The notes beneath the pieces are model-generated. The model was not told the origin of the DNA and ran no database searches. It worked only from the letters and a program-made list of their open reading frames with translations. A stretch of 64,000 nucleotides of DNA from positions 1,674,882 to 1,738,881 of the forward strand of contig OZ244832.1 of assembly GCA_965220485.1 (NCBI GenBank), written 5' to 3'. Source of the DNA: Candidatus Aldehydirespirator sp. (lineage in GTDB: Bacteria > Actinomycetota > Acidimicrobiia > Acidimicrobiales > Aldehydirespiratoraceae). A program made the translations under genes and the position numbers. Positions 4,601 to 23,252 of the stretch are shown here, in pieces. Each line of letters starts with the position of its first letter. Position 1 is the stretch's first letter.

Positions 4601-5473
4601 ATGTCCGACCACGCCGAGACGCTGATCGATCGCCCCGTCACCACCGGGAACGATTCTCAGCCAGCCGCAGCGACGCCCTCGCTGGCGACCGAGCGAGATG
4701 TCGTGTTCCGTTCCCAGGACGTCAACGTGTACTACGGCGGTTTCCGGGCCGTCCGCGACGCGACTTTCGACGTCCACAAGAACGAGATCACGGCCCTCAT
4801 CGGCCCTTCAGGCTGCGGCAAGTCCACAATCCTGCGGTGCTACAACCGCATGAACGACCTCATCAGGGGCGCCCGAGTCACCGGCACCATCACCTACCGC
4901 GGGGTGGACCTCTACGACGAGAAGGTAGACGCGGTGGAGGTGCGGCGTCGCATAGGCATGGTGTTCCAGAAACCCAACCCGTTCCCGAAGTCGATCTACG
5001 ACAACGTCGCCTACGGGCCGAGGGTGGCCGGCCAGAAGAAGGGGCTTGATGACGTCGTAGAAAACTCGCTGCGCAAGGCAGCTCTGTGGGAGGAAGTCAG
5101 CGACCGCCTCAAAGACTCCGCCTTCGAGCTCTCGGGCGGCCAGCAGCAAAGGTTGTGCATTGCTCGGGCCATCGCCGTAGACCCCGACGTGCTGCTGATG
5201 GACGAGCCGTGCTCGGCTCTCGACCCGATCGCCACCGCCCGCATCGAGGACCTGATGCAGGAGATCAAGCAGGACTACACGATCATGATCGTGACCCACA
5301 ACATGCAGCAGGCGGCCAGGGTGAGCGACACCACCGCGTTCTTCACCGCCGACGTCCACTCCGAGAACGACACCCGCACCGGCATCCTGGTAGAGGTGGA
5401 CACCACCCAGAAGATCTTCTCCAACCCCTCCGACGAGCGCACCGAGAACTACGTAACCGGACGGTTCGGCTAG
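4601..5473 (+). CDS. pstB: Phosphate ABC transporter ATP-binding protein PstB
   Basis: Walker [13 protein letters not shown] signature [14 protein letters not shown], Walker B LLMDEP, PstB-type C-terminus. Confidence 0.95.
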
Positions 5474-5702
5474 AGGCCGAGCGGATAGGAGCAGCTTGTG
5501 AGGAACTTCTCGAGGCGCCTAGCGAGGCCGTGGCCCAAGCGGCCCGTGAGCGCAGCGAACAAGAGCGGGAAGCACGGCCCAAGCGGCCCATGAGCGCAGC
5601 GAACAAGAGCGGGAAGCACGGCCCAAGCGGCCCATGAGCGCAGCGAACAAGAGCGGGAAGCACGGCCCAAGCGGCCCATGAGCGCAGCGAACAAGAGCGG
5701 GA
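5473..5702 (+). repeat. Intergenic repeat family copy A (5' box GAGGCCGAGCGGATAGG; 3' box expanded as about 4 tandem 44-bp units from 5532)
   Basis: Starts on the pstB stop codon. The unit ggcccaagcggccc(g/a)tgagcgcagcgaacaagagcgggaagcac repeats at 5532, 5576, 5620 and 5664. Confidence 0.9.
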
Positions 5703-5720
5703 ATCTAGGGGGACAAGATC

Positions 5721-6482
5721 ATGACCGAGCAGACCCGTAGAGGCTTCCACGCCGAGATCGACGAGATCAGCGACCTGATCGTCCAGCTAGCGGCTCGGGC
5801 CGGCGACGCCGTGGCGAGGGCCACCGACGCCTTGTTGAAGTACGACCTGGTCGAGGCCCAACAGATAATCGACGACGACGACCACATCGACGTAGCCGCC
5901 ATAGAGGTCGAGGAGAAGTGCCAGAGCCTGCTGGCGCTGCAGCAGCCCATGGCCGGCGACCTCCGCCAGATTCTGACTGCCATGTGGATCACCGGCGAGC
6001 TCGAGCGGACCGGAGGTCTGGCCTGCAACATCTGCAAGGGCGCCCGCCGGATGTTCCCCACCGAGTTGCCCCCCAGGCTGCGCGGCCTCATCGCGGAAAT
6101 GAACGAGGAGGCGATCCGGCTGATCCGGTTGTCGGTGGACTCCTACTCCGAACACGACGCGGCCTTGGCCGGTGCCCTTGACGACATCGACGACCGGCTC
6201 GACAGCCTGCACCGCACCTTCGTCAAGACCCTCCTCGAGTCGAGCCGCACACACGATCTCGACATCCAGCCGTCCGTGCAACTGGCCCTGATAGCCCGCT
6301 ACTACGAGCGCATCGGTGACCATGCCGTGAACATCAGCGATCGGGTCCGCTACATGGTTTCGGGCGTGATGCCGTGGCGGGCCGGAATTGCCCGACACCG
6401 GCTCCGCGAAGAGCCGACAATACATGAACTGGCAGCCGACCCGGCGGAGATGTCCCCCAACGGCGACGACAAGGCCGACTAG
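5721..6482 (+). CDS. phoU: Phosphate signalling/transport accessory protein PhoU
   Basis: Two PhoU-type helical repeats (E..D..ID...E, RYYERIGDHAVNI). Located downstream of pstB. Confidence 0.9.
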   Translation: MTEQTRRGFHAEIDEISDLIVQLAARAGDAVARATDALLKYDLVEAQQIIDDDDHIDVAAIEVEEKCQSLLALQQPMAGDLRQILTAMWITGELERTGGLACNICKGARRMFPTELPPRLRGLIAEMNEEAIRLIRLSVDSYSEHDAALAGALDDIDDRLDSLHRTFVKTLLESSRTHDLDIQPSVQLALIARYYERIGDHAVNISDRVRYMVSGVMPWRAGIARHRLREEPTIHELAADPAEMSPNGDDKAD

Positions 6483-6507
6483 AGCCGCAATCCTATGGTC
6501 ACGCTGA

Positions 6508-6603
6508 GAGGCCAAGCGGATGGGCAGCGGCTCGCGAGGGCTTTGCAGCGTACTGAGTGAGGCCGTGGCCCAAGCGGCCCGTGAGCGCAGCGAACAGGAG
6601 CGG
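6508..6603 (+). repeat. Intergenic repeat family copy B
   Basis: GAGGCCAAGCGGATGGG ... GAGGCCGTGGCCCAAGCGGCCCGTGAGCGCAGCGAACAGGAGCGG, 26 nt after the phoU stop. Confidence 0.85.
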
Positions 6604-6642
6604 CTTACTGCCGGAGTCGAGTCCGAGTAGAGTCGCCCTGCG

Positions 6643-7872
6643 ATGACCACGCTCATCATCGGAGTGCTGCTGGTGATGGGCGGTGCAGTAGCGGGCATCG
6701 CCGTGGACCGGGCCCGGCTTCGCCGGTGGATGAGCCAGCATGGCGCGCCGCTCCACGGCCAGGATTCGATCGGCCGAGCGACCCGCGGCCGCCGATTGTC
6801 GGTCCGCCGCGCCGTCGAGGACGCCAAGAGACGCCTGGATCTTGCCGAGGCCGACAAGCTGTCCGCCGAGACGGCCGCGCAACGGCTCGAAGCAAGCCTG
6901 GACTCGCTGCGGTCGGGGCTCGTCGTGTGCGACCGCAGCGGACGGGTTGTGGCCTGCAACGCGGCCGCGAGCGTGCTCCTGCAGGCCCGTCACGGCGAGG
7001 CGCTCGTGGCCGGGGTGATCAAGGATCTGCTCGAGAGGGCACGCGCCGGCGAGCGGGTGACAACCAATGTCGACCTGCACGCCGAGCCCCGCCGAAGCTA
7101 CGAGGTGGAAGCCGGTCCGATCGAGCGCCAAGGCGAAACGCTGGGAGCGGTCGCGCTGGTGCACGACATCACCGAGCACCATCGCATCGAGTCGGTGCGG
7201 CGCGACTTCGTCGCCAACGTGAGCCACGAACTGAAGACGCCGATCGGCGCGCTCAGCTTGCTGGCGGACTCGCTGCAAGCCGACTCCCAGCCGGAAGTGG
7301 CCGCCCGCCTCGCTGGCCGTATGCAGATAGAGATCCAGCGGGTGGCCAACACCATCGACGACCTTCTGACCCTGGCCATGCTGGAGGACGAGAGCGGCCG
7401 CCCGGACGAGCACGTCGACTTCGGTGCCGTCGTTGCCGCGGCCACCGACCGGATCTCCGAGACGGCAGAACAGCGGGACATCAAGGTGGTCGTCTCGACC
7501 GACACCGACATCGCGCCGATACGAGGGTCTCGGCTGCATCTCGAGTCGGCCGTGTTCAATCTGCTCGACAACGCCGTGAAGTTCAGCGAGCCCGGCGGCC
7601 AGGTCGACGTCGGCATCGAGACCGACCACAGCACCCTGACCGTGTCGGTGACCGACGAGGGGATCGGCATTCCGGCCACGGAGCGGTCCCGCATCTTTGA
7701 GCGCTTCTACCGCGTCGACCGGGCTCGCAGCCGCAACACGGGGGGCACCGGGCTGGGACTGTCCATCGTGCGCCATGTGGCGCTCAACCACGGCGGCGAG
7801 GTCAGCGTGACCTCCCGGGAGGGCTACGGAGCCCAGTTCACCATCACGCTGCCCCTCGACAACGGCGACTGA
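6643..7872 (+). CDS. Membrane sensor histidine kinase (PhoR/SenX3-like)
   Basis: N-terminal TM helix, H-box VSHELKTPIG, N box LLDNAVKFS, G boxes DEGIGI and GGTGLGLSIV. Linked to pst-phoU. No response regulator gene is adjacent. Confidence 0.85.
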   Translation: MTTLIIGVLLVMGGAVAGIAVDRARLRRWMSQHGAPLHGQDSIGRATRGRRLSVRRAVEDAKRRLDLAEADKLSAETAAQRLEASLDSLRSGLVVCDRSGRVVACNAAASVLLQARHGEALVAGVIKDLLERARAGERVTTNVDLHAEPRRSYEVEAGPIERQGETLGAVALVHDITEHHRIESVRRDFVANVSHELKTPIGALSLLADSLQADSQPEVAARLAGRMQIEIQRVANTIDDLLTLAMLEDESGRPDEHVDFGAVVAAATDRISETAEQRDIKVVVSTDTDIAPIRGSRLHLESAVFNLLDNAVKFSEPGGQVDVGIETDHSTLTVSVTDEGIGIPATERSRIFERFYRVDRARSRNTGGTGLGLSIVRHVALNHGGEVSVTSREGYGAQFTITLPLDNGD

Positions 7873-7906
7873 GCGGGGGTTGCCGGCCCGCTGGACGGCG
7901 ATGTAG

Positions 7907-8140
7907 ATGTCGTCGCGTCGCGTTGCCTCCGGGACAGCGCCGGGACCATCCTGGAAGACCCCATCCCTCTGTGAGCAGCTCGCTTCCATCGCTCTCGTCG
8001 GGTCCGTTGCCCGCGGCGAGGACGACGACGACAGCGACTACGACTTCAAGGTCGATGACAACGCCGTTTGGAGGACGATCTCGGAGGATGTCCCCAAGTT
8101 GGCGGCGCTGCTGGCCGAGACGGTCGGACTGGCCCCGTAA
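7907..8140 (+). CDS. Short Pol-beta-type nucleotidyltransferase-domain ORF (minimal MNT-like protein or fragment)
   Basis: The GSVARGEDDDDSDYDF motif (GS...D.D) is present. At 77 aa the ORF is shorter than a full NTase fold. Confidence 0.35.
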   Translation: MSSRRVASGTAPGPSWKTPSLCEQLASIALVGSVARGEDDDDSDYDFKVDDNAVWRTISEDVPKLAALLAETVGLAP

Positions 8141-8204
8141 CGGGTCCGCGACCCGTGCCGAGCGGTCACCGGCCGTGGCCGCTCGCTAGGGTCCCCGGTC
8201 TAGC

Positions 8205-9194
8205 TCAGACGACCGGCTTGCCGGTGGCGATGTCGTACTCTTCCAGGCCCTGCCGGATCACCGCGGCCCAGCGTCTCACGTCGGCTGCGGCATCATTCTC
8301 GCTGCCTTGCCGCTCCACCGCGCCGGCCACGTACTCGGCCACGTCGCAGGCGATCAGACCCATCGACCTCGTGAACGCCGGGGAGGCGACCTGCTGCACC
8401 GTCATGCCCTCGGTCGGGCTGCTGTAGGCGCCACGCGTGCGCCACATCGTGATGTAGTCCGGCGACTTCACCAGCTCGGGCGCCGCCGCCATGAGCGACC
8501 GCAGCGCGTGGGTGTCCTCATCGTCCAGCTTGGCGACGATCGTCCCCACATCATGGGACCACAGCGTTTCGGCGTCCACGCCCTCGAGCACGGCCAGCGC
8601 CTTGGCCGCGTTCTCCACCGCCATGTCGGCCGCCTCGCACAGGTCAACCAGTCGCCCGCCACGCAACTCCAGGTAGTCGCCCGGATCATCGTTGCCGGCT
8701 CTCTCCCGCTCGGCACGGCCCGGTTCCATGCTCGAGTCGATCTTGGTGAGGTTCAGCACCACGCCCCGCAGGCGCTCCATCGACAGTTCCTCATCCGATG
8801 CCGCCATGACCTGCTCCTTGCCCCAATCCACCTCGCTCGGTAGCATGGAACTACAGTATAACAGCATGAGATCATCTGATATAGCAGATGCGAAGGAGCC
8901 CCGCACCCGCTGCCGCTGGATCCGCCACTCGGGCCGATCGGTCACCAGCACCTCCACCCGACGCCCGCACGCCTCACAGGCCGCCCGCTGCAACTCTCTC
9001 TTCACCCGCAGCCGCTGCCTGTAGTCGACGTCGTCGAGCACCGCCACCAGATCGATGTCGCTGCCCCGACGCTGCTCACCGCGCGCCACCGACCCGTACA
9101 GCCACACCTCGGCCGCACCCTCAGCAACCAGTGCGTCAGCCGCACAGCGCGCATCGTCCATCGTGGGCACATCTCCATGAACCACCGCGACCAT
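8205..9194 (-). CDS. Nucleotidyltransferase-domain protein with long helical, HEPN-like C-terminal region (fused MNT/HEPN-like architecture)
   Basis: N-terminal LYGSVARGEQRRGSDIDLVAVL (GS-x9-D-x-D). The C-terminal ~180 aa are helical (AADMAVENAAKALAVLEG...). No clear R-x4-6-H HEPN motif was found. Confidence 0.6.
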   Translation of the reverse strand: MVAVVHGDVPTMDDARCAADALVAEGAAEVWLYGSVARGEQRRGSDIDLVAVLDDVDYRQRLRVKRELQRAACEACGRRVEVLVTDRPEWRIQRQRVRGSFASAISDDLMLLYCSSMLPSEVDWGKEQVMAASDEELSMERLRGVVLNLTKIDSSMEPGRAERERAGNDDPGDYLELRGGRLVDLCEAADMAVENAAKALAVLEGVDAETLWSHDVGTIVAKLDDEDTHALRSLMAAAPELVKSPDYITMWRTRGAYSSPTEGMTVQQVASPAFTRSMGLIACDVAEYVAGAVERQGSENDAAADVRRWAAVIRQGLEEYDIATGKPVV

Positions 9195-9315
9195 GGCACC
9201 AAGCTACTTCCACGCACGCGCCAGCCCAAGCGCAGGTGTGACGCGGCCCCGCTGGCCCATACGCGACATCATGACTCTGCTGAATGACATGTACGTCATT
9301 CGAGCGGCACTTGCC

Positions 9316-10113
9316 CTAGCTGTGCCCTCGCTCGCGCCCGTTGCCGGCGGTGGCCGAAGTCAGGAGCGACTGGCGCTGGCGCTCCAGCCAGCCGAGTAGC
9401 ACGGCCACCGCCCTGGGATCGTGGCGCAGATGGTGCGCGGCCCCGCTGATGACTCGCAGGTCAGCACGGGGATGCGCGTCGGCGAGGACGCGGGCGTCGA
9501 ACACCGGAACCGTCTCATCGTCACTGCCGTGGAGCACCAGCAGGGACCGGTCCCCGAGCGACTCGGCCGCCTCGACGGCACGCACGGCCCGGATCTCCGC
9601 AGCCCATCGATCGAACCGCTGGGGAAACTCCGGATCCCGCACCACGCCAACCTCCCGGGCCCACACCAGCAGCTTGCGAGGGTTGCGGGCCCAGTCCTCA
9701 AAGTCAGCCGGTGCGGCCACGGCCGCGACGCCCCGGACCCGCTCATCGCGGCTGGCCACTACGACGGCCAGCGCGCCGCCGGTTCCGAAGCCGATCAGCC
9801 AGACGCCGGCACACGGCACCTCCGACGCCAGAAAGTCGACTGCGCCGGCCAGGTCGCGCCTCCAGCCGTCGAGCGAGAAGTCACCGGTTGATCCGGCCAC
9901 TCCCCTCGACGCGTAGGTCAGGACGGCGAAGCCGGTCTCCGCGGCGATCAGGTCGGCGAGGGCCGGCATGGTCAGAGTGGAGTTGATGCCCCCGCCGGGC
10001 TCGGTGGGAAAGCCGTGGACGATCACCGCCGCCGGCTGCACGGCTGGCGGCCGGGCCGGTCGGGCGAGGTGAGCCGTAAGGACGTTCGAGTCGACGACGA
10101 ACCTGCTGTCCAT
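9316..10113 (-). CDS. Alpha/beta-fold hydrolase family protein
   Basis: Has the HG motif (VIVHGFP), VLHGSDDETVP, and a C-terminal His region. The nucleophile elbow reads GFGTG, so no obvious Ser is present. Confidence 0.6.
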   Translation of the reverse strand: MDSRFVVDSNVLTAHLARPARPPAVQPAAVIVHGFPTEPGGGINSTLTMPALADLIAAETGFAVLTYASRGVAGSTGDFSLDGWRRDLAGAVDFLASEVPCAGVWLIGFGTGGALAVVVASRDERVRGVAAVAAPADFEDWARNPRKLLVWAREVGVVRDPEFPQRFDRWAAEIRAVRAVEAAESLGDRSLLVLHGSDDETVPVFDARVLADAHPRADLRVISGAAHHLRHDPRAVAVLLGWLERQRQSLLTSATAGNGRERGHS

Positions 10114-10158
10114 CCGGGCTACCGTACTCCTCTCCGAAGGCTTGCTTCATCACCACTG

Positions 10159-10220: not shown

Positions 10221-10643
10221 TTGTGCTGTTCGCCAACACCGGCACCGAGCATCCGGCGACATATTACACCTCGCCTGCTGTCGTTTCAGAACTCTGCGTC
10301 TAGTGTCCAACCGCTGTGGGCGCTCGGTCGCCTCGTGAGTATGGGCGCGCAGTGGGGCGGACCAACAGGCCCGCCCCACTGGTCGTTTCTGCCGGAAATC
10401 CCGGGCGAGCCTCGCACACTCGCGGCCGAAACAGCCGTGGTGCCTGGCCGGATGTGACTAGGTCCGGCGACTCGGGTCCGGGGGTGGAGCTGGCGGGGAT
10501 TCGCCAGTCGGTCCAGCTTGCCGTAGCTAGCGGCCAGCCACCTCCAAGGTCACAAAGCGTTTAGCACTCAGTTGGACCACCTCCTTTCCCTTGGTGGTAC
10601 CAGTCAACCACACGCACCGGCGCCGCGCCACGCTTTTGCTGGC

Positions 10644-10758
10644 CTATCCGCTCGGCCCCACTGTTGCCCACTCTTGTTCGCTGCGCTCACGGGCCGCTCG
10701 GGCCACAGCCTCGCCGGCACCCTGCGAATCTCCATGAACTCGACCCATCCGCTCGGCC
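10644..10758 (-). repeat. Intergenic repeat family copy C (inverted orientation)
   Basis: The reverse complement reads GGCCGAGCGGATGGG...GAGGCTGTGGCCCGAGCGGCCCGTGAGCGCAGCGAACAAGAGTGGG...GGCCGAGCGGATAG. Confidence 0.85.
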
Positions 10759-10759
10759 C

Positions 10760-10866
10760 CTAGGTGGCTGGTGCCAAACTCCCGAAATGGGGGGATTGCG
10801 GTCACAAAACCCCAGGTCAGCGACTTGCGAATTGTGGCAAATTGCCATTTAACACCAGCCACCTAG
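10760..10866 (+). repeat. 107-bp unit 'A' copy 1 (ends are inverted repeats CTAGGTGGCTGGTG...CACCAGCCACCTAG)
   Basis: Near-identical to 10966-11072 and to the reverse complement of 13024-13130. Confidence 0.9.
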
Positions 10867-10966
10867 GAGACTGCTGAGTAAGTCACAAATTGCTAGTTTC
10901 GTGATCATAAAACCCCAGGTCAGAGGCTTGTGGGTTGGCCGAAATCGGTATTACTCAGCAGTCTCC
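10866..10966. mobile_element. 101-bp MITE-like derivative of the neighbouring IS (both IS termini, no transposase)
   Basis: Begins GGAGACTGCTGAGTAAG and ends TTACTCAGCAGTCTCC, the same terminal inverted repeats as the IS at 11072-13024. Sits between two unit-A copies at a CCTA|TAGG junction. Confidence 0.75.
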
Positions 10967-11072
10967 TAGGTGGCTGGTGCCAAACTCCCGAAATGGGGGT
11001 TTTGCGGTCACAAAACCCCAGGTCAGCGACTTGCGAATTGTGGCAAATTGCCATTTGACACCAGCCACCTAG
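10966..11072 (+). repeat. 107-bp unit 'A' copy 2
   Basis: Direct repeat of 10760-10866. Abuts the left end of the IS. Confidence 0.9.
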
Positions 11073-13024
11073 GAGACTGCTGAGTAATTCGGGTCGGGGT
11101 GCTCGCGATCGTGTGGGGGGTGTGGGAGAATCGGGGGCATGCAGGGAACTGAGAAGCCGGATCGGGAACTGTTGGACGCGCTGGGGCTGTGCGGGGCTCT
11201 GGTGGGTGAGGGGTCGGTGCATCGGTTCTTGGCCGAGCACCGCCTGAGGCTGTTTGCTGACGGGTTGTTCGCGGATCTGTTCGGGCCGCGTGGGCGGCCG
11301 TCGGTGCCGGGGTCGGTGATCGCGGTGGTGATGGTGCTGCAGGCGCTGGAGGGGTGCTCTGACCGCGAGGCGCTGGAGCGGCTGCGCTGTGATGTGCGCT
11401 GGAAGGCCGCGGCGGGTCTCAGCATCGACGACGGGGGCTTCGACGCGAGCGTGTTGACGCTGTGGCGCCAGAGGCTGCGGGCCAGTGAGCGCCCCGAGCG
11501 GATCTTCGACGCGGTGCGCGAGGTGGCCGCTGAGTGCGGGGCGCTGTCAAAGAGGACGCGGCGGGCGCTGGACTCCACGGTGCTGTATGACGCGGTGGCG
11601 ACCCAGGACACGGTCACGATGATCTCAGCTCAGATACGGCGTGTGCGCCGCCTGGCGCCGCGTGCGGCCGCGGTGGCGCTGGGCCATGGCTACGACAGCC
11701 GGGCCAAGCCGGTGTGCGACTGGGGCGACCCCGATGAGCGGTCCTGGCTCATAGACGAGATGGTCACAGACGCCCGTGCGGTGCTCGACGCGCTCGAGGG
11801 CTCAGAGCTCACAGAGGAGCAGGCCGAGGCGGCGGCGCTGCTGGCGGTGGTGGCCGGCCAGGACGTCGAGGCCGACCCGAAGGTGCCGGGTCGCTGGCGC
11901 ATAGCGCGCCGCGTGGCGCCGGGGCGGGTGATATCGACGGTGGACCCCGAGGCCCGCCACGCCCGCAAGTCCCGCTCGCAGCGCCGCGACGGCTACAAGG
12001 CCCACATCTGCGCCGAGCCCGACACCGGGCTCATCACCGCAGCAGAGCTCACCACAGCAGACACATCAGACGCCCGAGTCGGCCCCCGCCTCCTCAACAA
12101 CGATCCCACAGCCCCCCACAACACCACCGACACCGCCACCACCGACACCACCGCCGACACCGACACCGCCGACACCGCCACCGCCGACACCGACACCGCC
12201 GACACCGACACCGACACCGCCGACACCGCCGACACCACCGCCGACACCGCCGACACCGACACCGAGACCGCCGACGCCGACACCGCCGACGCCGATACCG
12301 ACGCCGAGACCGGCGACAGCGATGCCGTCTTGGGGGCTGGGGGGTTCGTGGGGCTGGTGCTGGCCGACTCCGCCTACGCGTCGGGCGAGGCGCTCGACGC
12401 GTTCGAGGGCGCCGGCTACGCCACCGCCATCAAGCCCATCGACCCCAGGCCGCGCATCAAAGGGGGCTTCACCCGAGACGACTTCACCATCGACACCGAC
12501 GCCCAGACCGTGACCTGCCCCGCCGGGCACACCAAAGCCGTCACCTCCGGCGCGGCCCGCTTCGGCGCGCTGTGCGGCGGCTGCCCCCTGCGCGCCCGCT
12601 GCACCACCTCGCGCTCCGGGCGCAGCGTCACCGTCGACGCACACCACGCGCGCCGCCAAGCCAACAAGACCCGCTGGGCCCAGCCCGCAACCCAGGCCGC
12701 CTACCGCCGGCACCGCCCCATGGCCGAGAGATCCATCGCGTGGCTCACCCGCAACAAAGCCAGACGCGTCCCCTACCGAGGCGTCGCCGCCAACCACCTC
12801 TGGCTCACCACCAGAGCCGCCGCCGTCAACCTCGTGCGCCTCACCAACCTCGGCGTCACCCACACAGGCGGCGCATTCACCCTCTGAGCCCCGGCGGCAG
12901 CGCCGCGCGCCCGGGCCCGCACCAACCACAGCACCCCACCACCCCGAACCCCGCCGACCGACCCCGCCGACCCCGCCGACCCCGCCCGACACCCGGTCGC
13001 CGCACCAGTTGCTCAGCAGTCTCC
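11072..13024 (+). mobile_element. Insertion sequence, IS1182/IS5-superfamily-like (~1.95 kb)
   Basis: Terminal inverted repeats GGAGACTGCTGAGTAA (11072-11087) and TTGCTCAGCAGTCTCC (13009-13024). Single transposase ORF. Flanks read CCTA|IS|TAGG, consistent with a TA duplication in a CCTAGG palindrome. Alternatively the flanking unit-A copies are ~125-bp extended TIRs. Confidence 0.8.
11139..12887 (+). CDS. DDE transposase (InsH/DUF772-type N-terminus, Cys-rich zinc-ribbon, IS1182-like C-terminus) with internal Thr/Asp/Ala low-complexity insert
   Basis: N-terminal PSVPGSVIAVVMVLQALEGCSDREALERLRCDVRWKAAAGL. Cys cluster CPAGH...CGGCPLRARC. C-terminal MAERSIAWLTR...YRG. Confidence 0.85.
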   Translation: MQGTEKPDRELLDALGLCGALVGEGSVHRFLAEHRLRLFADGLFADLFGPRGRPSVPGSVIAVVMVLQALEGCSDREALERLRCDVRWKAAAGLSIDDGGFDASVLTLWRQRLRASERPERIFDAVREVAAECGALSKRTRRALDSTVLYDAVATQDTVTMISAQIRRVRRLAPRAAAVALGHGYDSRAKPVCDWGDPDERSWLIDEMVTDARAVLDALEGSELTEEQAEAAALLAVVAGQDVEADPKVPGRWRIARRVAPGRVISTVDPEARHARKSRSQRRDGYKAHICAEPDTGLITAAELTTADTSDARVGPRLLNNDPTAPHNTTDTATTDTTADTDTADTATADTDTADTDTDTADTADTTADTADTDTETADADTADADTDAETGDSDAVLGAGGFVGLVLADSAYASGEALDAFEGAGYATAIKPIDPRPRIKGGFTRDDFTIDTDAQTVTCPAGHTKAVTSGAARFGALCGGCPLRARCTTSRSGRSVTVDAHHARRQANKTRWAQPATQAAYRRHRPMAERSIAWLTRNKARRVPYRGVAANHLWLTTRAAAVNLVRLTNLGVTHTGGAFTL

Positions 13025-13130
13025 TAGGTGGCTGGTGTTAAATGGCAATTTGCCACAATTCGCAAGTCGCTGACCTGGGGTTTTGTGACCGCAAAACCCC
13101 CATTTCGGGAGTTTGGCACCAGCCACCTAG
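13024..13130 (-). repeat. 107-bp unit 'A' copy 3 (inverted)
   Basis: Reverse complement of unit A, directly abutting the right end of the IS. Confidence 0.9.
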
Positions 13131-13621: not shown

Positions 13622-13669
13622 ATAGTGTGGGGAACCACAGGATGTTCGCCGATGGGCGCCGCGCCCCGG

Positions 13670-14785: not shown

Positions 14786-14888
14786 GTGGGACTCTCCTGC
14801 CAGCTATGTGGGGCAAACCGTGTGGGGCCAAGCTATCGGGGCGGATCCTGCCTTGAACGGTCGTAGTGCCCGCCGCGGCGGCGTGTCT

Positions 14889-15160
14889 CCCGCTCCTGAT
14901 CGCTGCGCTCACCGGCCGCTCGGGCAGTGTCCCCGCTCCTGATCGCTGCGCTCACCGGCCGCTCGGGCAGTGTCCCCGCTCCTGATCGCTGCGCTCACCG
15001 GCCGCTCGGGCAGTGTCCCCGCTCCTGATCGCTGCGCTCACCGGCCGCTCGGGCAGTGTCCCCGCTCCTGATCGCTGCGCTCACCGGCCGCTCGGGCCGC
15101 GGGGCCTCGCTGAACGCCCCGCGCCGCCCTAAGCACAGTGGTGCCTGCACGCTCGGCCTC
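14889..15160 (-). repeat. Intergenic repeat family copy D (inverted; 3' box expanded as 5 tandem 43-bp units, 14889-15100)
   Basis: The unit cccgctcctgatcgctgcgctcaccggccgctcgggcagtgtc has period 43 (G at 14892, 14935, 14978, 15021, 15064). The 5' box GAGGCCGAGCG (reverse complement) ends at 15160, 13 nt from the sufC start. Confidence 0.9.
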
Positions 15161-15172
15161 TAGGATCGGTGC

Positions 15173-15927
<755 letters not shown>

Positions 15928-15931
<4 letters not shown>

Positions 15932-16027
15932 CCGGCAGCGGCGACCGGCTCGGAGGACACCCGTCGTGACCGGCAGCGGCGACCGGCTCGGAGGACACCC
16001 GTCGTGACCGGCAGCGGCGACCGGCCC
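15928..16027 (+). repeat. 38-bp tandem duplication (2.6 copies) at the sufC/sufS junction
   Basis: GTGACCGGCAGCGGCGACCGGCTCGGAGGACACCCGTC occurs at 15928 and 15966, with a partial copy at 16004. Each copy carries the GTGA stop/start motif. Only the third GTG opens the sufS frame. Confidence 0.9.
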
Positions 16028-17248
16028 GAGGTGGGAGCGCGGGCGGACTTCCCCCTCCTGGGGCGGGAGGTGCACGGCAGGCCGATCATCTACCTCGACT
16101 CGGCCGCCTCGTCGCAGAAGCCCCGCTGCGTCCTCGACGCCATGAACATCTACTACGAGACGATCAACGCCAACGTCCACCGGGGCGCCTACGAGATCGC
16201 AGCCCAGGCCACCGAGGCCATGGAGGCGGCCCGGGCTGCCGTTGCCCGTTTCGTGAACGCGCCGTCCCCCGACGAGATCGTGTTCACCAAGAACGTCACC
16301 GAGGCCATCAACCTCGTGGCCCGCTCGTGGGGCGGGGCCAACCTCGGGCCGGGCGACGCAGTGGTGATCACCGAGATGGAGCACCACGCCAACATCGTTC
16401 CCTGGCACATAATGGCGGCCGAGAGGGGCTTCGAGCTTCGCTGGATCGGCGTCGGAGCCGACGGCCAGCTCGATCTCAGCAACTTCGACCGGCTCCTCGA
16501 CGGGGCCAAGCTGCTGGGCGTGACCGCCATGAGCAACGTGCTGGGCACGCTCAACCCGATACGCCGGCTGGCCGACGCCGCCCACGACGCCGGGGCGCTG
16601 ATCCTGGTGGACGCGGCCCAGTACGTCCCGCATCTGCCGACCGACGTCCAGGCCCTCGGAGCCGATTTCCTGGGCTTCACCGGCCACAAGATGTGCGGTC
16701 CCACCGGGATCGGGGTGCTGTGGGCCAGAGCTGAGCTGCTGGAGGCGATGCCTCCGTTCCTCGGGGGCGGCGAGATGATCCTGGATGTGCGCAAGGACGG
16801 CTTCCTGCCCAACCACATCCCCCACAAGTTCGAGGCCGGAACCCCGCCCATCGCCGAGATCATCGGACTCGGCGCCGCCGTCGAGTACCTCGACGGCCTG
16901 GGCATGGACCGGGTGCGGGCGCACGAGGTGAGCCTCACCGCTTACGCCATGCGCACGCTGGAGGAGCGCTACGGCTCAGACCTCGCGGTGCACGGGCCAG
17001 CCGAGCCTGCCTGCAGGGGCGGGGTGCTGTCGATGAGCTTCCGCGACATCCATCCCCACGACCTGTCGCAGGTGCTCGACGACCGCGGCGTGTGCGTGCG
17101 GGCCGGCCATCACTGCGCCAAGCCGCTGATGCGACATCTCGGGGTGCCGGCCACCGCCCGGGCGTCGCTCTACGTTTACAACGACACTTCCGACGTGGAC
17201 GCCCTCGCCGACGCGATCGGTGTCGCCGGCGACTTCTTCTCCAGGTAA
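16004..17248 (+). CDS. sufS: Cysteine desulfurase SufS (group II, PLP-dependent)
   Basis: HHANIVPW, the PLP-lysine motif FTGHKMCGPTGIG, and the catalytic-Cys motif RAGHHCA. Confidence 0.92.
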   Translation: MTGSGDRPEVGARADFPLLGREVHGRPIIYLDSAASSQKPRCVLDAMNIYYETINANVHRGAYEIAAQATEAMEAARAAVARFVNAPSPDEIVFTKNVTEAINLVARSWGGANLGPGDAVVITEMEHHANIVPWHIMAAERGFELRWIGVGADGQLDLSNFDRLLDGAKLLGVTAMSNVLGTLNPIRRLADAAHDAGALILVDAAQYVPHLPTDVQALGADFLGFTGHKMCGPTGIGVLWARAELLEAMPPFLGGGEMILDVRKDGFLPNHIPHKFEAGTPPIAEIIGLGAAVEYLDGLGMDRVRAHEVSLTAYAMRTLEERYGSDLAVHGPAEPACRGGVLSMSFRDIHPHDLSQVLDDRGVCVRAGHHCAKPLMRHLGVPATARASLYVYNDTSDVDALADAIGVAGDFFSR

Positions 17249-17347
17249 GAGGCCGAGCGGATGGGCGGCAAGTGGTGAGAGTCCTGGTGAGGCGCTCAGC
17301 GAGACCGTGGCCCGAGCGGCCCGTGAGCGCAGCGAACAAGAGCGGGA
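17249..17347 (+). repeat. Intergenic repeat family copy E
   Basis: Starts immediately after the sufS TAA: GAGGCCGAGCGGATGGG...GAGACCGTGGCCCGAGCGGCCCGTGAGCGCAGCGAACAAGAGCGGGA. Confidence 0.9.
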
Positions 17348-17409
17348 GACACGACGCTTCACCGCGAGGCGGCGTCACCTACCCGCGCGTGTTCTAAGAG
17401 GAGGAAGCC

Positions 17410-17898: not shown

Positions 17899-17933
17899 CA
17901 TCGCGGCCTCTGGGGGCTGTTACCGTCTAGTTC

Positions 17934-18977
17934 GTGACGGACCTGCCGCCGCCCGACTGGTACACCGACCCCGAGGACGCCGCCCAGTACCGGTACTGGG
18001 ACGGCTCGCAGTGGACCGACCATCGGGCGCCCCGTCACAGCAGTCCCTCTGAAGGCAGCAGCCGCTCCAGACATCGCAGCATCCGTGATCTGCTTACGGG
18101 CACTTGGAGGATGGCAACCCAGAACTGGCGGCCGCTGCTGATCATCTACGCGGTGGTCGCCGTCGTGTACTTGGTCGGTGAGCAAGCGGTCAGGGTGGGA
18201 TATGGCGACGTGTTCGGCGACACGCTGGGAGCTGTGATCAGCGATTTGGAGTCACTCGACCCCAACGCCGAGGCCGAGGAGACCGGAGCGGTGTTGGAGG
18301 GCAGCTGGAACGACCTGACGGACCGCCTGAGAGGCCTGGGCTCGTCGACGCTGGTCGCTGGGGTGCTGCTGATGGTGGTGGGTAGCGTCGCCGTGGTCGC
18401 AATCAACATCGTCGAGTTCGCTGCGTTCGGGCAGTTCACGATGGCCCGGTTGAGTGGCCGACGGATGGGGGCGACCCAAGCGTTGCGGGCCGGCCTGGGG
18501 CGCCTGGTGCGCATCATCGGCGTGGGCTTGATGCTGCTGGCGATGTGGTGCGCCGCGATGATGGTGGCCTCGCTCGTGGCGGGATTGCTGAGCCTGGCTT
18601 CGGGTGTGCTGGCGGTGGTGCTATTCCTGGCTGTGCTGGTGGTGATGGCGGGCGCGGTGCCGCTGGCGCTCCTTACCGCCATGACTGCCGCCGCGGGTCC
18701 GGCCACGCCGTCAATGCGCTATGCCCGCGACCTCCTGAGGGGCACCTATTGGGCGACCCTCGGCCGCATCGCCTTGCTCTTCGTCCTGTCGATGGCCGCG
18801 ACCGTCCCGGTGGTGGTCGTCGGCGAAGTGGCCGGACTCTTCAGCGACCCGCTCGCACGCGTGGCCCTGCTTGTGCTGAGCGTGTTCCCCGAAGTGCTGT
18901 CCAGCATCGCCTTCTTCACCGTCTATCACGACCTCGGCGGCGAGTCCGCCGACCCGGCCGTCTCGCCAGCCGCCTGA
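17934..18977 (+). CDS. DUF2510-type N-terminal domain fused to a polytopic membrane protein
   Basis: N-terminal PPDWYTDPEDAAQYRYWDGSQWTDH (DUF2510 signature), followed by several hydrophobic helices. Confidence 0.65.
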   Translation: MTDLPPPDWYTDPEDAAQYRYWDGSQWTDHRAPRHSSPSEGSSRSRHRSIRDLLTGTWRMATQNWRPLLIIYAVVAVVYLVGEQAVRVGYGDVFGDTLGAVISDLESLDPNAEAEETGAVLEGSWNDLTDRLRGLGSSTLVAGVLLMVVGSVAVVAINIVEFAAFGQFTMARLSGRRMGATQALRAGLGRLVRIIGVGLMLLAMWCAAMMVASLVAGLLSLASGVLAVVLFLAVLVVMAGAVPLALLTAMTAAAGPATPSMRYARDLLRGTYWATLGRIALLFVLSMAATVPVVVVGEVAGLFSDPLARVALLVLSVFPEVLSSIAFFTVYHDLGGESADPAVSPAA

Positions 18978-18978
18978 G

Positions 18979-21783
18979 CTAGCCGCCGGCTAGCAGGTCC
19001 TTGAGGGCTTCGCCGTAGGCGGCCAGCTTGGCCGGACCGATTCCGGGCACGGCCAACAGGGTCGCGTCGGTGGTGGGGCGGCTGCGGGCCAACTCGCGCA
19101 GGACGGCGTCGGAGAAGACCCGGAACGGCCGCACCTCCTCGGCCTGACTCTGCTCCCAGCGCCATCGGCGCAGGCGCTGGAACATCGCCGCCACCTCGGG
19201 CTCGGCGGTCTCATCGATGGGCGGGCTCTGGGCTCTGGGCGGGGATGAGGCAGGTTTGGCGGGTGCTGGGCGCTGAGGCCGGACAGACCCGTCGGCGGGG
19301 ATACCCGTCGGTTGGAGCTTGGAGCGCCAAGACATCTCGTCGACGAAGGGCGACCTCGGGCCGTCGGCGACGATCAGCACCGACTCCGAGCAGCGGGTGA
19401 GGGCCACGTGGAACACGCGGCGCTCCTCCTCGATGTCGCCGGCCAGGCGGTGCGGCATCAAGCCCTCGATGGCCGACAGGACGATCACATGGGGCCACTC
19501 CAGACCCTTGACACGGTGCACGGTGGCCAAGCGCACGCCCCGGCCCCAGGAGGGGCGACCCCCGCGGGGATCGCCCTCGCCGCCGTCGCGACGGCCCGCA
19601 GTGAGGCGGCCCCGCAGCCAGTCCTCGAACGCTGACGGGTCAGCGCAGTGCGGCGCCACCGACAGCAGGGCCCGCAGGTCGTCGCCGTGGGCGGAGCGGT
19701 CCACCGAGCGGCGGGAGGCGTCGAGGCGCTCATCGAGGCTGGCCCCCAGCCGGGTGCCGTGCTGGATCCCCTCCAGCAGTCGCAAGGTGTCAGCGCCGTC
19801 GCGGGCCATGTCGCCGAGACGCTCGACCTCGTCGGCGAAGTCGGACACCCGCTCGGAGGTCCGCTCGTCGGAGATGCGCCCGGCCAGGCGCCTGAGCGCG
19901 CCCACGTTGTGCTGCTCCGCGATCCATTCGACCACCCGGGGGGAGATGCCCCGAGGTGGGCGCCGGGCCGCGGCGGCCAGGGCCTCGGCGGGCAGCCGGG
20001 CCGAGCCGGCCGTGGCCAGCCTCAGCCACGCCAGCGCGGCGGCAACCCCGGTGCGCTCCAGGAACCACGGCCCGACCGGGGCCATGCAGTCGATGCCCGC
20101 CTCCGACAGCAATACCTGGGGCGCCAGCAGCGTGCTGTTCACCCTGGTCAGAACGGCGATGTCATGGGCATCAGCACCCCCGCCCATCAGGGTCCTGACC
20201 CGTTCCACGACTGCCGAGCCACCGTCGGCGACCACCTCCACCTCAACTGTCCGCTCCCCCGAGTCGGAAGCGGGGGCGCTACCCGGCTCGATGTCCTTGG
20301 CGATGCGGTGGACGTTGTGAGTGAGCAGGTTGGAAGCGGCCTCCACCACCTCGGGCGGGCAGCGGTAGTTCACCCGCAACAGATGCCGGGCCGCGCCCGG
20401 GAACCAGCGCTCGTACTCGATCAGCCAGCGGGGCGAGGCCCCCGAATAGCCGTAGATGGTCTGGTCGTCGTCGCCCACGCCGAAGACATCGGCCCTCGGA
20501 CCGGCCAGCAGACGGATCATCAGCAGATGGGCCGGCGTCAGGTCCTGGAACTCGTCAACCAGCAGCGCTCCACATGTTCTGCGGGCTGCGGCCCGGGCGG
20601 CTGGGTCGGTCAGCAGCACGTCGATGGCCCGCACGATCTGATGGTCGAAATCGACGGCGCCTCGCTGGTCGAGGGCGTCGGCATAGGCCGGAGCCAACTC
20701 GGCGAAGCTCGGGACGTCGGGGGCGTAGTCCCGCTCGACTGCGGCAGGATCCTGCAAGCCCAGCCGCGACGCGCTGAGCGCCTCGAGCCACGCCGCCAGC
20801 GGGTCGGTCATGGCCCGGCGCCGGCGGCGCGGCGCCCGCTCCCCTACCAGTGCGTGCACCAAGTCCCGCACTTCCCGCTCGTCGATCACGTCCACGCGAC
20901 CATGGCGTGCGGGGCGTGCGAAGGGACCGGTGCCGTTGCACACCGCCAGCGCCAGGCTGTTGAGGGTGCGCACTTCCAAGCCCTCGAGATCGGCGGTGCG
21001 CTCCTGCATCTCGGCGCGGGCCCGCACGTTGTAGGCCACCAGGCACACCGCTGACGGCGACACGCCCAGGTCGCGGACCAGCCACCGGGCCCGCTCGGTG
21101 AGCACCCGGGTCTTGCCCGATCCGGCCGGGGCCACGATGCAGGCCCCTCCGCCGAGATGGCCCACCGCCCGCCGCTGGTCGGGCGCCAGATCGGCGACGG
21201 GCTCGCAGGGCCGCAGGACGGCGAGGCTGCCCACCGCCAGGTTGGCGGCCGGGATCAGCGCCGCGTTGTGAAGATCGACAGCATCGAGACAGTCCAGGGG
21301 ACCGCCGTCGCACCACGCGGGACCGCCGGAGGGCGACACGACGTCTCCGGGTTCCCCATCGCTCGCGGCCCGGGCACCCAGCGCCAAGGCCCGCTCACGG
21401 GGGGCGAAGCCAGGCCGGTCGGGATCTCGCGCGTCCACCGAGTTGGCGGTCAGCAGGTGATTCCAGACCTCGTCGCCGAGGGTGACACCGGGGTGGACCT
21501 TCCACCACGGCACCTCGAGGATCGGCTCACCATGGGGCACCGGTCCGTGCACCTCGATGACGATCCGCTCCCGATTGCTCCAAGCGGCCCGCAGGCGGCG
21601 ACCGGCTCCGGCTTCGAACTCATTCGTGCGCACCGTCAGCCGCGGCGCCTGCGCCCACGGCGCGGGCGGCGGCTCTCCCGGCAGCACGAGCACGCTGCGG
21701 CCCAGGCAGTCGGGCCCCGCCAGCCGCCCCACATCGGGCTGCTCTGGAGCCAGCGATGCGGCTTCCAGCCCGCGGGACATCAT
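18979..21783 (-). CDS. UvrD/PcrA-family SF1 DNA helicase with C-terminal HRDC domain (UvrD2-like)
   Basis: Walker A APAGSGKTRV, motif II LLVDEFQD. The C-terminal LRRWRWEQSQAEEVRPFRVFSDAVLRELA...VPGIGPAKLAAYGEAL matches the HRDC pattern. Confidence 0.85.
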   Translation of the reverse strand: MMSRGLEAASLAPEQPDVGRLAGPDCLGRSVLVLPGEPPPAPWAQAPRLTVRTNEFEAGAGRRLRAAWSNRERIVIEVHGPVPHGEPILEVPWWKVHPGVTLGDEVWNHLLTANSVDARDPDRPGFAPRERALALGARAASDGEPGDVVSPSGGPAWCDGGPLDCLDAVDLHNAALIPAANLAVGSLAVLRPCEPVADLAPDQRRAVGHLGGGACIVAPAGSGKTRVLTERARWLVRDLGVSPSAVCLVAYNVRARAEMQERTADLEGLEVRTLNSLALAVCNGTGPFARPARHGRVDVIDEREVRDLVHALVGERAPRRRRRAMTDPLAAWLEALSASRLGLQDPAAVERDYAPDVPSFAELAPAYADALDQRGAVDFDHQIVRAIDVLLTDPAARAAARRTCGALLVDEFQDLTPAHLLMIRLLAGPRADVFGVGDDDQTIYGYSGASPRWLIEYERWFPGAARHLLRVNYRCPPEVVEAASNLLTHNVHRIAKDIEPGSAPASDSGERTVEVEVVADGGSAVVERVRTLMGGGADAHDIAVLTRVNSTLLAPQVLLSEAGIDCMAPVGPWFLERTGVAAALAWLRLATAGSARLPAEALAAAARRPPRGISPRVVEWIAEQHNVGALRRLAGRISDERTSERVSDFADEVERLGDMARDGADTLRLLEGIQHGTRLGASLDERLDASRRSVDRSAHGDDLRALLSVAPHCADPSAFEDWLRGRLTAGRRDGGEGDPRGGRPSWGRGVRLATVHRVKGLEWPHVIVLSAIEGLMPHRLAGDIEEERRVFHVALTRCSESVLIVADGPRSPFVDEMSWRSKLQPTGIPADGSVRPQRPAPAKPASSPPRAQSPPIDETAEPEVAAMFQRLRRWRWEQSQAEEVRPFRVFSDAVLRELARSRPTTDATLLAVPGIGPAKLAAYGEALKDLLAGG

Positions 21784-22556
21784 CAGGCCGGCTGCGACGA
21801 GCCGAGGCTCTTCATCGCCTCGATCACCCGGTCGGGTCGGTGGCAGCGGCCGTAGTCGAAGCCGGCCCGGATGCAGATCTCCAGAAGTTCGTCATGCTGA
21901 TCGGTCTGCTTCCAGGGCAGGGGCAAGTAGACCGGCAACCCGAAGGCTCGCAGGGCGTCGAGGTTCTCATAGACGCGCTTCTGGTACCGGTAGCGGTCGG
22001 CCCACTCCCAGTCGGGCGGGCCGAATCCGGTTCCGGGGTCGAGGATCAGCCGGCTGCGCTCGACGCCCGCCTCCTCCCAGCGGCGCAGCGATCGCCGGAA
22101 CCAGCCGCAGATCACCTCGACCGGATCACCTACAACCGGAACCGAGGCCTTAGGGTCGGCGCCCCACACGAACGGCGCCACCACCGGCACGTCCCGCTCG
22201 GCCGCGAGCCGCACCATGGCCGGGTTCTGGAGCCCGTCGGCGGCGTTGATCATGGTGGCGCCGCAGTCGAGAGCCCGGCGCATGATCTCGGGCTGCCAGG
22301 AGTCCACCGAGAGCTGGGCCCCGCGTGACTCGCACAGCGCAGCGAGCGCTTGGACCTTGCCATCGAGGCGCTGCCACTCGACGTCGACACCGACCCGGCG
22401 GGCGACCTGAGTGGAGCCCGCCCCCCCGAGGTCTATGCCGACGCAGCCCCCGTCGAGCAGTTCGGTGGCCCGGGTTTCGGCTCCTTTGACCGTCGTCGCC
22501 ACCGAGAAGTCGGCCAGCGAGTCCGGCGAGGCGTTCACGACGCCGTGCAGCCTCAT
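21783..22556 (-). CDS. Dihydropteroate-synthase-like pterin-binding domain protein
   Basis: MRLHGVVNASPDSLADFS parallels the DHPS N-terminal motif GI(L/V)N.TPDSF.D. TIM-barrel-like length. The stop overlaps the helicase start (ATGA). The ORF-track start at 22706 is probably too early. Confidence 0.6.
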   Translation of the reverse strand: MRLHGVVNASPDSLADFSVATTVKGAETRATELLDGGCVGIDLGGAGSTQVARRVGVDVEWQRLDGKVQALAALCESRGAQLSVDSWQPEIMRRALDCGATMINAADGLQNPAMVRLAAERDVPVVAPFVWGADPKASVPVVGDPVEVICGWFRRSLRRWEEAGVERSRLILDPGTGFGPPDWEWADRYRYQKRVYENLDALRAFGLPVYLPLPWKQTDQHDELLEICIRAGFDYGRCHRPDRVIEAMKSLGSSQPA

Positions 22557-22674
22557 CGCTTGTGCGTGGGCACGACGCCTGCCTGGCTGAAGTCCGCCAC
22601 GCCCGGCAGTGTCGCAGGACATCGGCGCCATACCACCCCCGAGAACCTCCCGAGGCGGCGCTAGAGTCGCCACA

Positions 22675-22731
22675 GTGAGCGATCTGCCCCCGGCCGACTG
22701 GTACACCGACCCTGAGGACGTGCGCGGATAG
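22675..22731 (+). pseudogene. Remnant of a DUF2510-type gene 5' end (18 codons then stop)
   Basis: GTG AGC GAT CTG CCC CCG GCC GAC TGG TAC ACC GAC CCT GAG GAC... encodes VSDLPPADWYTDPEDVRG*. It closely parallels the first codons of the gene at 17934 at both DNA and protein level. Confidence 0.5.
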
Positions 22732-22837
22732 GCGCTCTACGGCGTCTCGAATCGCTGGAAACGCAAGCGTCGTTGGTGCTGGCTGTCACCTGTCCGCGTG
22801 GCCCCCCGACCTCGGCGGCGAGTCGGACTGACTGCGC

Positions 22838-23128
22838 CTAGCCGCTGGCGGCGTCGACGCGCTCGATGAAGTCGCGGTCGCGAGCCGAGAGGCCGCCCAC
22901 ATCGTGGCTGGTGATGGCCAGTTCAACCTTGTTGTAGACGTTGGACCACTCGGGGTGATGGAAGAGCCGCTCGGCGATGAGCGCCACATGGGCCATGAAT
23001 GCGAACGCGGCCCGGAAGTCGGCGAACACATACGAGCGGCGCAGCACGCCACTGTCGCGGCGCCACTCGGGATGCGCGGCCAGCAAGTCGGCGATCTCGG
23101 CCTCGGTCAGCAGGTCGTCTTTGCTCAT
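22838..23128 (-). CDS. Pterin-4a-carbinolamine dehydratase
   Basis: [42 protein letters not shown] is the PCD/DCoH signature. Start taken at MSKDDLL (23128). The longer track ORF runs into a repeat. Confidence 0.85.
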
Positions 23129-23153
23129 GGGCCTCGATGCTACGTGACCGTTG

Positions 23154-23252
23154 GAGGCCGAGCGAGTAGGCCGCGGTTGACGAGGATTCTTGAATGGCAC
23201 TGAGCGAGGCCGTGGCCCGAGCGGCCCGTGAGCGCAGCGAACAAGAGCGGGA
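23154..23252 (+). repeat. Intergenic repeat family copy F
   Basis: GAGGCCGAGCGAGTAGG...GAGGCCGTGGCCCGAGCGGCCCGTGAGCGCAGCGAACAAGAGCGGGA, lying between two minus-strand genes. Confidence 0.9.

Follow-up and report, generated by a model that had tools for sequence, protein, structure and literature searches.

A dispersed intergenic repeat of Candidatus Aldehydirespirator is probably a nonautonomous IS5-type element with a conserved core

The DNA considered here, referred to throughout as the window, is a stretch of 64,000 nucleotides from Candidatus Aldehydirespirator sp. of the Acidimicrobiia (GenBank assembly GCA_965220485.1, contig OZ244832.1, forward-strand positions 1,674,882 to 1,738,881). 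Six of its intergenic spacers, including those that separate pstB from phoU and sufS from sufU, contain copies of a repeat that an earlier reading of the same DNA (the original prediction) had described. The repeat is interpreted here as a nonautonomous miniature inverted-repeat transposable element (MITE) of the IS5 type, derived from or parasitic on an insertion sequence (IS) of the IS5 family, an interpretation to which we assign a probability of roughly 0.8. The copies in the window, and one relative that has ends of the same type without the conserved core, are arranged as follows, with V1 and V2 denoting the variable arms to the left and right of the core.

Copy 1, 5470..5708, plus strand: CTAG (containing the pstB stop codon TAG), left end, V1, a 44-bp core unit repeated 3.9 times (5532-5703), then AT and CTAG, without V2 or a right end; the phoU ATG lies 13 nt downstream.
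Copy 2, 6504..6605, plus strand: CTGAG, left end GAGGCCAAGCGGATGGG, V1, one core, then truncated; between phoU and a PAS histidine kinase gene.
Copy 3, 10643..10763, minus strand: left end, V1, core, then a second partial left end (10643-10659); its CTAG at 10760-10763 adjoins a nest of other CTAG-inserting elements.
Copy 4, 14871..15163, minus strand: CTAG (15160-15163), left end, V1, a 43-bp core unit repeated 5 times (14883-15097), the start of V2, then truncated; between a diverging acyl-CoA dehydrogenase gene and sufC.
Copy 5, 17245..17398, plus strand: full length, with TAAG (including the sufS stop codon TAA), left end, V1, core, V2, right end CCTACCCGCGCGTGTTC, and TAAG; the ribosome-binding site and ATG of sufU follow directly 3'.
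Copy 6, 23151..23303, plus strand: full length, antisense to both flanking minus-strand genes; the CTTAG of its right end supplies the TAA stop codon (minus strand, 23300-23302) of a gene for a 2011-aa protein with S8 peptidase, fn3, and cadherin domains.
Core-less relative, 30306..30404, no strand assigned: 99 nt, CTTAG-AACATGCGCGGATAG ... CTATCCGCGCTGCCTCT-TGG, with ends of the same type inverted on either side of 55 unrelated nucleotides, as seen by direct reading of the sequence.

The 3' box of the repeat, GGCCCRAGCGGCCCRTGAGCGCAGCGA, matches the window 13 times when up to 3 mismatches are allowed, exactly at the six loci, whereas 0 matches are expected from shuffled sequence, and the 5' box is found at the beginning of all six copies. 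All six loci are intergenic when genes are called by open reading frame (ORF) length and by GC content at third codon positions, and an alpha/beta hydrolase is among the Pfam-identified neighbors. The description of a dispersed intergenic family with six loci is borne out by these matches and gene calls, as is the remark that two copies start on or after stop codons, since both the pstB stop codon TAG (5471-5473) and the sufS stop codon TAA (17246-17248) overlap the first bases of the element. Other parts of that description need revision. The unit length had been put at about 100 nt, whereas full-length copies (17245-17398 and 23151-23303) measure about 155 nt and extend through a second variable arm to a right end; the ranges 5473-5702 and 14889-15160 were long because the core is tandemly repeated there (44 bp by 3.9 and 43 bp by 5, respectively, according to Tandem Repeats Finder). 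The sequence common to the two boxes had been given as GCCGAGCGG but is CCGAGCGG (CCAAGCGG in copies 1 and 2). Searching the window with a profile of full-length copies revealed no further core-bearing copies, and the claim that the right-hand 40 kb is free of copies holds for this form; it does not extend to the core-less relative, which has both ends.

In its full form the element comprises a flanking YNAG, the left end AGGCCGAGCGGATAGG(C), V1, a near-invariant core of 49 nt, V2, and the right end (A)CCTATCCGCGC..(G)CTCT, which runs into NAG. The left end is also given as AGAGGCCGAGCGGATAGG and the right end as CCTATCCGCGC..CTCT, and the core reads GCGAGGCCGTGGCCCGAGCGGCCCGTGAGCGCAGCGAACAAGAGCGGGA. 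Elements range in size from about 100 to 240 nt, and the distance from the 5' box to the core pattern, which defines the size classes of V1, is 28, 32, 55/56, or 63 to 68 nt. Only copies 5 and 6 of the window are full length, the right end being missing from copies 1 to 4. The two ends are imperfect inverted repeats in which 74% of cells pair (21 end pairs), compared to 32 to 52% with the partner slid, and the end pairs of L015 and L047, two of the retrieved loci (numbered with the prefix L), show 10 to 13 perfect pairs. A degenerate copy of the left end in direct orientation (GAGGCCG-TGGCCCG-AGCGG) opens the core, which contains GAGCG three times at a repeat spacing of 11 to 15 bp and is amplifiable in units of 43/44 bp or 27 bp. 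One core is present in copies 2, 3, 5, and 6, 3.9 in copy 1, 5 in copy 4, and 7 in L008, and forms without any core exist.

The link to the IS5 family comes from the ends. A scan of metagenomes queried with an 18-mer from the left end yielded, at positions 93 to 1069 of L161, a complete IS of about 980 bp that is bounded by the ends of the element and flanked by cTTAG and cTAAG. Its termini are GAGGCCGAGCGGATAGGCGCC at 93-113 and the inverted partner GAGGCCGCGCGGATAGGCGCC at 1049-1069; the left one is identical to the left end of the element at 17 of 17 positions, and the right one agrees with the right ends at 16 of 17. This IS encodes a 294-aa protein that matches the NCBIfam IS5-family model NF033580 with 154 bits (cutoff of 110), as well as DDE_Tnp_1 and DUF4096. 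An Acidimicrobiales chromosome that itself carries the repeat (L080, OZ220724.1) encodes a transposase 60% identical to that of L161 and contains an end in which CTTAG is followed by AGCGTCAGCGGATAGG. The original prediction had not recognized the repeat as a known MITE and had mentioned membership in an IS end as a result that would tell against its own proposal; the ends do match those of an IS5-family IS, and the assignment to MITEs follows from these inverted repeats. The repeat is small, noncoding, and multicopy, is bounded by terminal inverted repeats that match an autonomous IS, and differs between relatives.

The same ends enclose other interiors as well. Small metagenome families whose interiors are unrelated are likewise bounded by the left-end 18-mer (at least 44 copies for alpha, at least 10 for beta, and 6 for gamma), the gamma family being a variant of the core; the scan with this 18-mer contained 4 copies of the present type. 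Core-less miniature elements with these ends were found at 6179 in L002 and at 6190-6258 in L040, in addition to the one in the window. In a sister family from metagenomes (L133, L144, L162, L197, and L203), the ends and the start and end of the core are the same, and TGAGCGCAGCGAAC is replaced by the perfect hairpin GCTCGCC-GAA-GGCGAGC; a second core variant, CCCTCAGGTCGCAGCGAAC, occurs in L006, L026, L045, L098, and L113. Solitary left ends beside genes were considered as possible autonomous copies and rejected, their neighbors being heme-oxygenase-like and pterin-binding proteins.

Comparison of close relatives indicates that the element is mobile. L101 is the ortholog of window positions 1254-10095 and is 90 to 96% identical to it; its pstB-phoU site is empty and reads GGC TGA GGGCACAAGT ATG, where the window reads GGC(TAG)AGGCC...GGGAAT(CTAG)GGGGACAAGATCATG. 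The site of copy 2 between phoU and the kinase gene is likewise empty in L101, which has a 27-nt spacer there, and L101 carries a copy of its own where the window has none. Flank searches among close relatives yielded at least nine pairs of filled and empty orthologous sites in total. The pair L091/L055 represents a clean insertion with TAG on both sides, L111/L037 has TGAG on both sides, and L086/L003 is another such pair; in L085/L011 and L060/L048, the flank repeats are 14 to 17 nt long, take in the first bases of the element, and look like partial tandem duplications. Clean flank repeats of TAG, CTAG, TGAG, TAAG, or TTAG occur in several copies and filled/empty pairs, and many copies have no matching flanks. 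The left flank is invariably YNAG and the right one TNAG, and the two often are not identical; in 13 of 29 copies both flanks have the same base at the variable position of YNAG, compared to 7.8 expected (p of about 0.03).

Further differences were seen in L101. A segment of about 1.5 kb of the window (7885-9358) that contains a nucleotidyltransferase gene (Polbeta/NTP_transf_2, 8205-9194) is missing from L101 (738-881), and tandem solitary left ends of the element are present at about 751-840 of L101, at that nucleotidyltransferase site. The start region of phoU is repeated at 2945-3030 of L101 (minus strand) in three tandem copies of ATGACCGAGCAGACCCGCGA...

Several observations weigh against interpreting the repeat as an IS5-type MITE. 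The IS with identical ends sits in an unrelated metagenome contig, and in the lineage of the window, where the search covered the retrieved loci rather than whole genomes, only a related end (13 of 17 positions) was found, in one relative and at a locus that ends before the second end. Target duplications are imperfect: suffix matches of 4 nt or more number 9, compared to 6.1 expected, which is not significant (p = 0.15), and the inverted repeat itself may include the flanking NAG, which would then not be a duplication. About half of the copies lack one end, yet some of these have clean boundaries (L091 and copy 1 of the window), which is not predicted by simple cut-and-paste movement of a two-ended element. 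Some core-only copies are flanked by long direct duplications of 14 to 29 nt (L001, L088, L085, and L060). In the core-only copies at 2940-3060 of L001 and 3640-3720 of L088, the host duplications are 29 and 15 nt long, respectively, and their last bases are GTGGCCC(G), with which the core begins; a target duplication of fixed length does not explain them, and their form suggests slippage or microhomology-mediated partial tandem duplication. Finally, the interior core is better conserved than the right end, whereas the ends are the best-conserved part of ordinary MITEs, and the apparent invariance of the core is inflated because the genome loci were retrieved with a core pattern.

That pattern, 19 bases long and applied to one genome per species, returned more than 114 stretches, all from metagenome-assembled genomes (MAGs) of Acidimicrobiia, including Candidatus Aldehydirespirator, Candidatus Poriferisodalis, Microthrixaceae, and sponge-derived bins. 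It is a common family in MAGs of this class, many of which represent sponge symbionts. A profile search of 945 kb gave 173 hits corresponding to 154 elements; among the hits, 66 were full length, 33 consisted of left end and core, 42 of core only (tandem units included), and 15 of core and right end. Between co-directional genes, 66 elements are in sense and 29 in antisense orientation, while 27 lie in divergent and 18 in convergent spacers. The ends often overlap stop codons on either strand. The neighbors are functionally unrelated and include housekeeping genes, with 207 Pfam families among the 144 proteins that neighbor the 154 elements. A phage origin was rejected, as only a single viral contig contained a match. 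The literature searched did not contain the core sequence in a relevant context or a description of repeats in these taxa; the family is a previously undescribed one of a well-known kind. Two unrelated features were observed in L015, namely, a match above the gathering score to Rfam PYLIS_3, the mttB pyrrolysine insertion sequence (2091-2190), and a tRNA gene directly after a tandem pair of elements (5127-5201).

The conservation of the core is the one feature that ordinary MITE biology leaves unexplained. Across three orthologous pairs, 114 of 117 core bases are identical, a figure that is inflated in that five of the six orthologous copies were retrieved by the core pattern, compared to 68 of 94 bases in V1, 92 of 135 in the 45 nt after the core, and 54 to 86% in the flanks. 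The copy at 3149 of L086, which was not retrieved by the pattern, nevertheless has 38 of 39 identical bases in the core, against 21 of 35 in V1 and 28 of 45 in the 45 nt after the core, and the 33 secondary copies that lie outside the core-pattern retrieval mostly differ little from the core consensus. Sense and antisense copies have equally conserved cores, those of antisense copies being at least as intact. The core appears to be constrained at the DNA level, and both selection at that level and concerted evolution fit its conservation. Its most likely role would be that of a site bound by the transposase or by a protein of the host, a sense-strand RNA motif being less likely.

The last point bears on whether the repeat encodes a structured noncoding RNA, either a small RNA or a cis-acting mRNA element such as a processing or stability signal, with the inverted ends forming a closing helix. 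The preference for sense orientation between co-directional genes (66:29), the presence of copies inside operons, where they must be cotranscribed, and the retention of the core in orthologous copies are compatible with such a role, as are the effects on transcripts of the related repeats BIME, ERIC, Correia, and BOX (PMC3049150); in addition, covariation in the closing helix scores 0.180, compared to 0.157 in shuffles, a score reached by 3 of 500. Against this, Rfam gave no match at the gathering score in the window and none at an E value of ≤1 for the element at three loci with full-length copies, which led to rejection of a known RNA family, and the folding energies of single sequences do not stand out from those of shuffled controls on either strand (z of about -0.4 to -0.5), which led to rejection of a stable fold. 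RNAalifold, run on 29, 35, and 19 copies, recovered only the end helix and invariant GC stems, in weak structures that vary with the subset, size class, and strand. Double changes in the end helix, the only one with covariation (GC 13/AU 6 and AU 15/GC 4), pass through G-U and A-C intermediates at ratios of 5/5 and 3/7; G-U is about as frequent as A-C and neither strand is favored, as expected for the co-drifting inverted repeats of a DNA element. An all-pairs mutual-information scan was noisy, its main signal being the identity of the variable flank bases at the two ends. Moreover, 30% of the copies in co-directional spacers are antisense with cores at least as well conserved, and in tandem core units the predicted core hairpin is without its 5' strand. 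The small-RNA or RNA-structure family considered in the original prediction thus finds no support, and an RNA function of this sort appears improbable. The exclusion of an obvious terminator in that prediction stands, since the element has no U-tract and lies between essential cotranscribed genes such as sufS and sufU. A coding peptide was rejected because the size classes share no frame (V1 differs by 11 nt), the arrays repeat with a period of 43/44, and a synonymous-site pattern is lacking. Less credible still is a repetitive extragenic palindromic (REP)/REPIN-like or IS200/IS605-type element (PATE) moved as single-stranded DNA by a Y1 transposase (RAYT/TnpA), inserting 3' of TNAG without duplication. 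This had been proposed with the original prediction and would account for the constant, often nonidentical YNAG and TNAG flanks and the unequal ends, and the orientation bias could follow the direction of replication. Inverted repeats of 17 to 21 nt are foreign to this class, however; the IS with these exact ends encodes a DDE transposase of the IS5 family rather than a Y1 enzyme, the GTAG-type REP palindrome is absent, and no Y1 gene appeared among the 25 most frequent families listed for the 144 neighboring genes. Nor does the repeat, with its unit of about 155 nt and nonpalindromic interior, resemble REPs or REPINs, which are imperfect palindromes of only 20 to 40 nt that carry a conserved 5' tetranucleotide, form inverted pairs, and flank a RAYT gene. 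What survives of that proposal is mobilization in trans, which may occur, with a DDE transposase in place of RAYT/TnpA-REP. The reading that we consider least plausible, to the point of being negligible, takes the 43/44-bp arrays as a separate system, either a type III antitoxin RNA array or a degenerate CRISPR. Units of 43 to 44 bp in 4 to 7 near-perfect copies (including those of L008) are close in size to toxI-type repeats, but spacers are absent, the period is not a multiple of 3, and the arrays always lie within the element after the left end and V1. Gene context led to its rejection, as the neighbors are phoU, the acyl-CoA dehydrogenase gene, and sufC, with no adjacent toxN-like or cas gene, and a variable module number is known behavior of boxB in BOX elements (PMC3049150).

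In a more serious alternative, the core would belong to the host as a cis-element, either bound by a chromosomal protein or acting as a regulatory DNA motif selected at each locus, and the MITE would be only its vehicle. The core is far better conserved in orthologs than V1, V2, and the flanks, including in the L086 copy, this conservation is independent of orientation, GAGCG recurs every 11 to 15 bp, and core-only and tandem-core copies persist. It lacks a candidate protein, though, and the core is not palindromic, the neighboring genes have no common function, and sister families with the same ends have quite different interiors; an appearance of purifying selection could also arise from ascertainment bias and from gene conversion among the roughly 100 or more identical copies. 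We regard this alternative as doubtful. The related proposition that the core has a function as a DNA (or RNA) module, spread by the MITE through the genomes of sponge-associated Acidimicrobiia and maintained locus by locus through selection, is likewise put forward only tentatively and seems unlikely; if it were true, many unrelated operons would be wired to one binding factor.

For the IS5-type MITE, a mechanism can be proposed that fits the features above. The repeat is probably moved in trans by an IS5-family transposase, as the shared termini suggest: a DDE enzyme of this family encoded elsewhere would recognize both ends as terminal inverted repeats and insert the element at Y-T-N-A-G sites, duplicating 2 to 4 flanking bases (TA/TNA/TNAG). 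In this genome, with a GC content of about 88% at third codon positions, such sites are largely limited to stop codons and the short spacers after them. This would account for the stop codons at the edges of copies and for the copies within operons, where they would be cotranscribed without blocking downstream genes. The interior is modular (V1, the 49-nt core, and V2), like that of pneumococcal BOX, and slippage or unequal exchange between short GAGCGG/GGCCCG repeats would amplify the core in tandem, delete it, or leave truncated copies.

The same target is used by other mobile elements. In the nest next to copy 3, two MITE families are arranged head to tail with an IS1182-family IS and copy 3, and all of the elements are separated by CTAG.

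Palindromic MITE, about 101 to 103 bp, three copies, 10763-10863, 10969-11069, and 13027-13127: ends GGTGGCTGGTGCCAAA, bounded by CTAG.
MITE of 99 bp carrying IS1182 ends, 10867-10965: bounded by CTAG.
IS1182-family IS, 11073-13023, 1951 bp: 582-aa transposase (11139-12887) matching NF033551 with 297 bits; ends GAGACTGCTGAGTAA and TTGCTCAGCAGTCTC, with CTAG on both sides.

The transposase ORF of the IS1182 element contains a low-complexity tandem-repeat insert (12121-12327) that splits its tblastn self-match. As the partner IS of the repeat, this element was rejected because its ends (GAGACTGCTGAGTAA) match those of the repeat in only 7 of 15 bases. IS1380-like ISs with a DDE_Tnp_1_4 transposase are inserted exactly in the CTNAG termini of the repeat at 310-1632 of L010 and 5850-7196 of L020, with 5-bp duplications (CTAAA and CTGAG); they were also rejected as partners, since they have ends of their own (CCTGGATCCACCGG) and merely inserted there. 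The CTAG-bounded IS1182 element and MITEs, together with the IS1380-like insertions, indicate that T-N-A-G sites are targets common to several elements.

The window contains other repeats as well. The 2011-aa protein that ends in copy 6 (23300-29335) is of the secreted type and contains an S8 peptidase domain, a P-domain, fn3 domains, and cadherin repeats; further ORFs with large repeat arrays are found at 61476-63310, and such proteins are typical of host-associated symbionts. A perfect 38-bp tandem repeat (2.7 copies) spans the junction between the end of sufC and the start of sufS (15924-16025), and a 31-bp tandem repeat (5.5 copies, 99% matches) is located at 44528-44699.

The repeat has practical consequences. 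It generates spurious ORFs and shifts or supplies stop codons (in pstB, sufS, and the 2011-aa adhesin-like gene), which affects annotation, and it will break short-read assemblies of these uncultured symbionts. In these GC-rich genomes, several mobile elements share the T-N-A-G sites as landing pads. Differences in tandem core number and in the presence or absence of copies could serve as strain markers, as BOX elements do, and the conserved interior block offers a lead in that it could be a transposase or host-protein site.

Among known systems, IS5-derived MITEs (the IS427/IS1031-like subgroup; NF033580) are the closest, sharing terminal inverted repeats identical or nearly identical to those of the L161 IS, a target of the T-N-A/CTAG type with flanking repeats of 2 to 4 bp, and small, noncoding, intergenic, multicopy elements that are present or absent between close relatives. 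The present family differs from them in its interior, which is not a deletion derivative of the IS and by eye has no similarity to the subterminal regions of the L161 IS, in its 49-nt core, which is better conserved than its right end, and in its many one-ended and core-only copies. In architecture the nearest counterpart is the BOX element of Streptococcus pneumoniae, boxA-(boxB)n-boxC (PMC3049150). Both are composites in which two end modules resemble the inverted repeats of an IS and enclose a module of about 45 bp that may be absent or repeated up to many times in tandem, and both are intergenic, cotranscribed, and often clustered with other repeats. The resemblance is one of architecture and not of homology: the present element occurs in GC-rich Acidimicrobiia rather than in an AT-rich firmicute and has two extra variable arms, and its link to an IS (17 of 17 positions) is much stronger than the weak ISSpn2 similarity of BOX. 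Correia elements of Neisseria and the ERIC and BIME elements of Enterobacteria are likewise bounded by inverted repeats, intergenic, and found at short T/A-containing targets, and they too become part of transcripts, where they can provide stop codons or change expression. They differ from the present element in their demonstrated effects on RNA processing, promoters, or attenuation, and REP/BIME elements differ further from it in their use of a Y1 (RAYT) enzyme.

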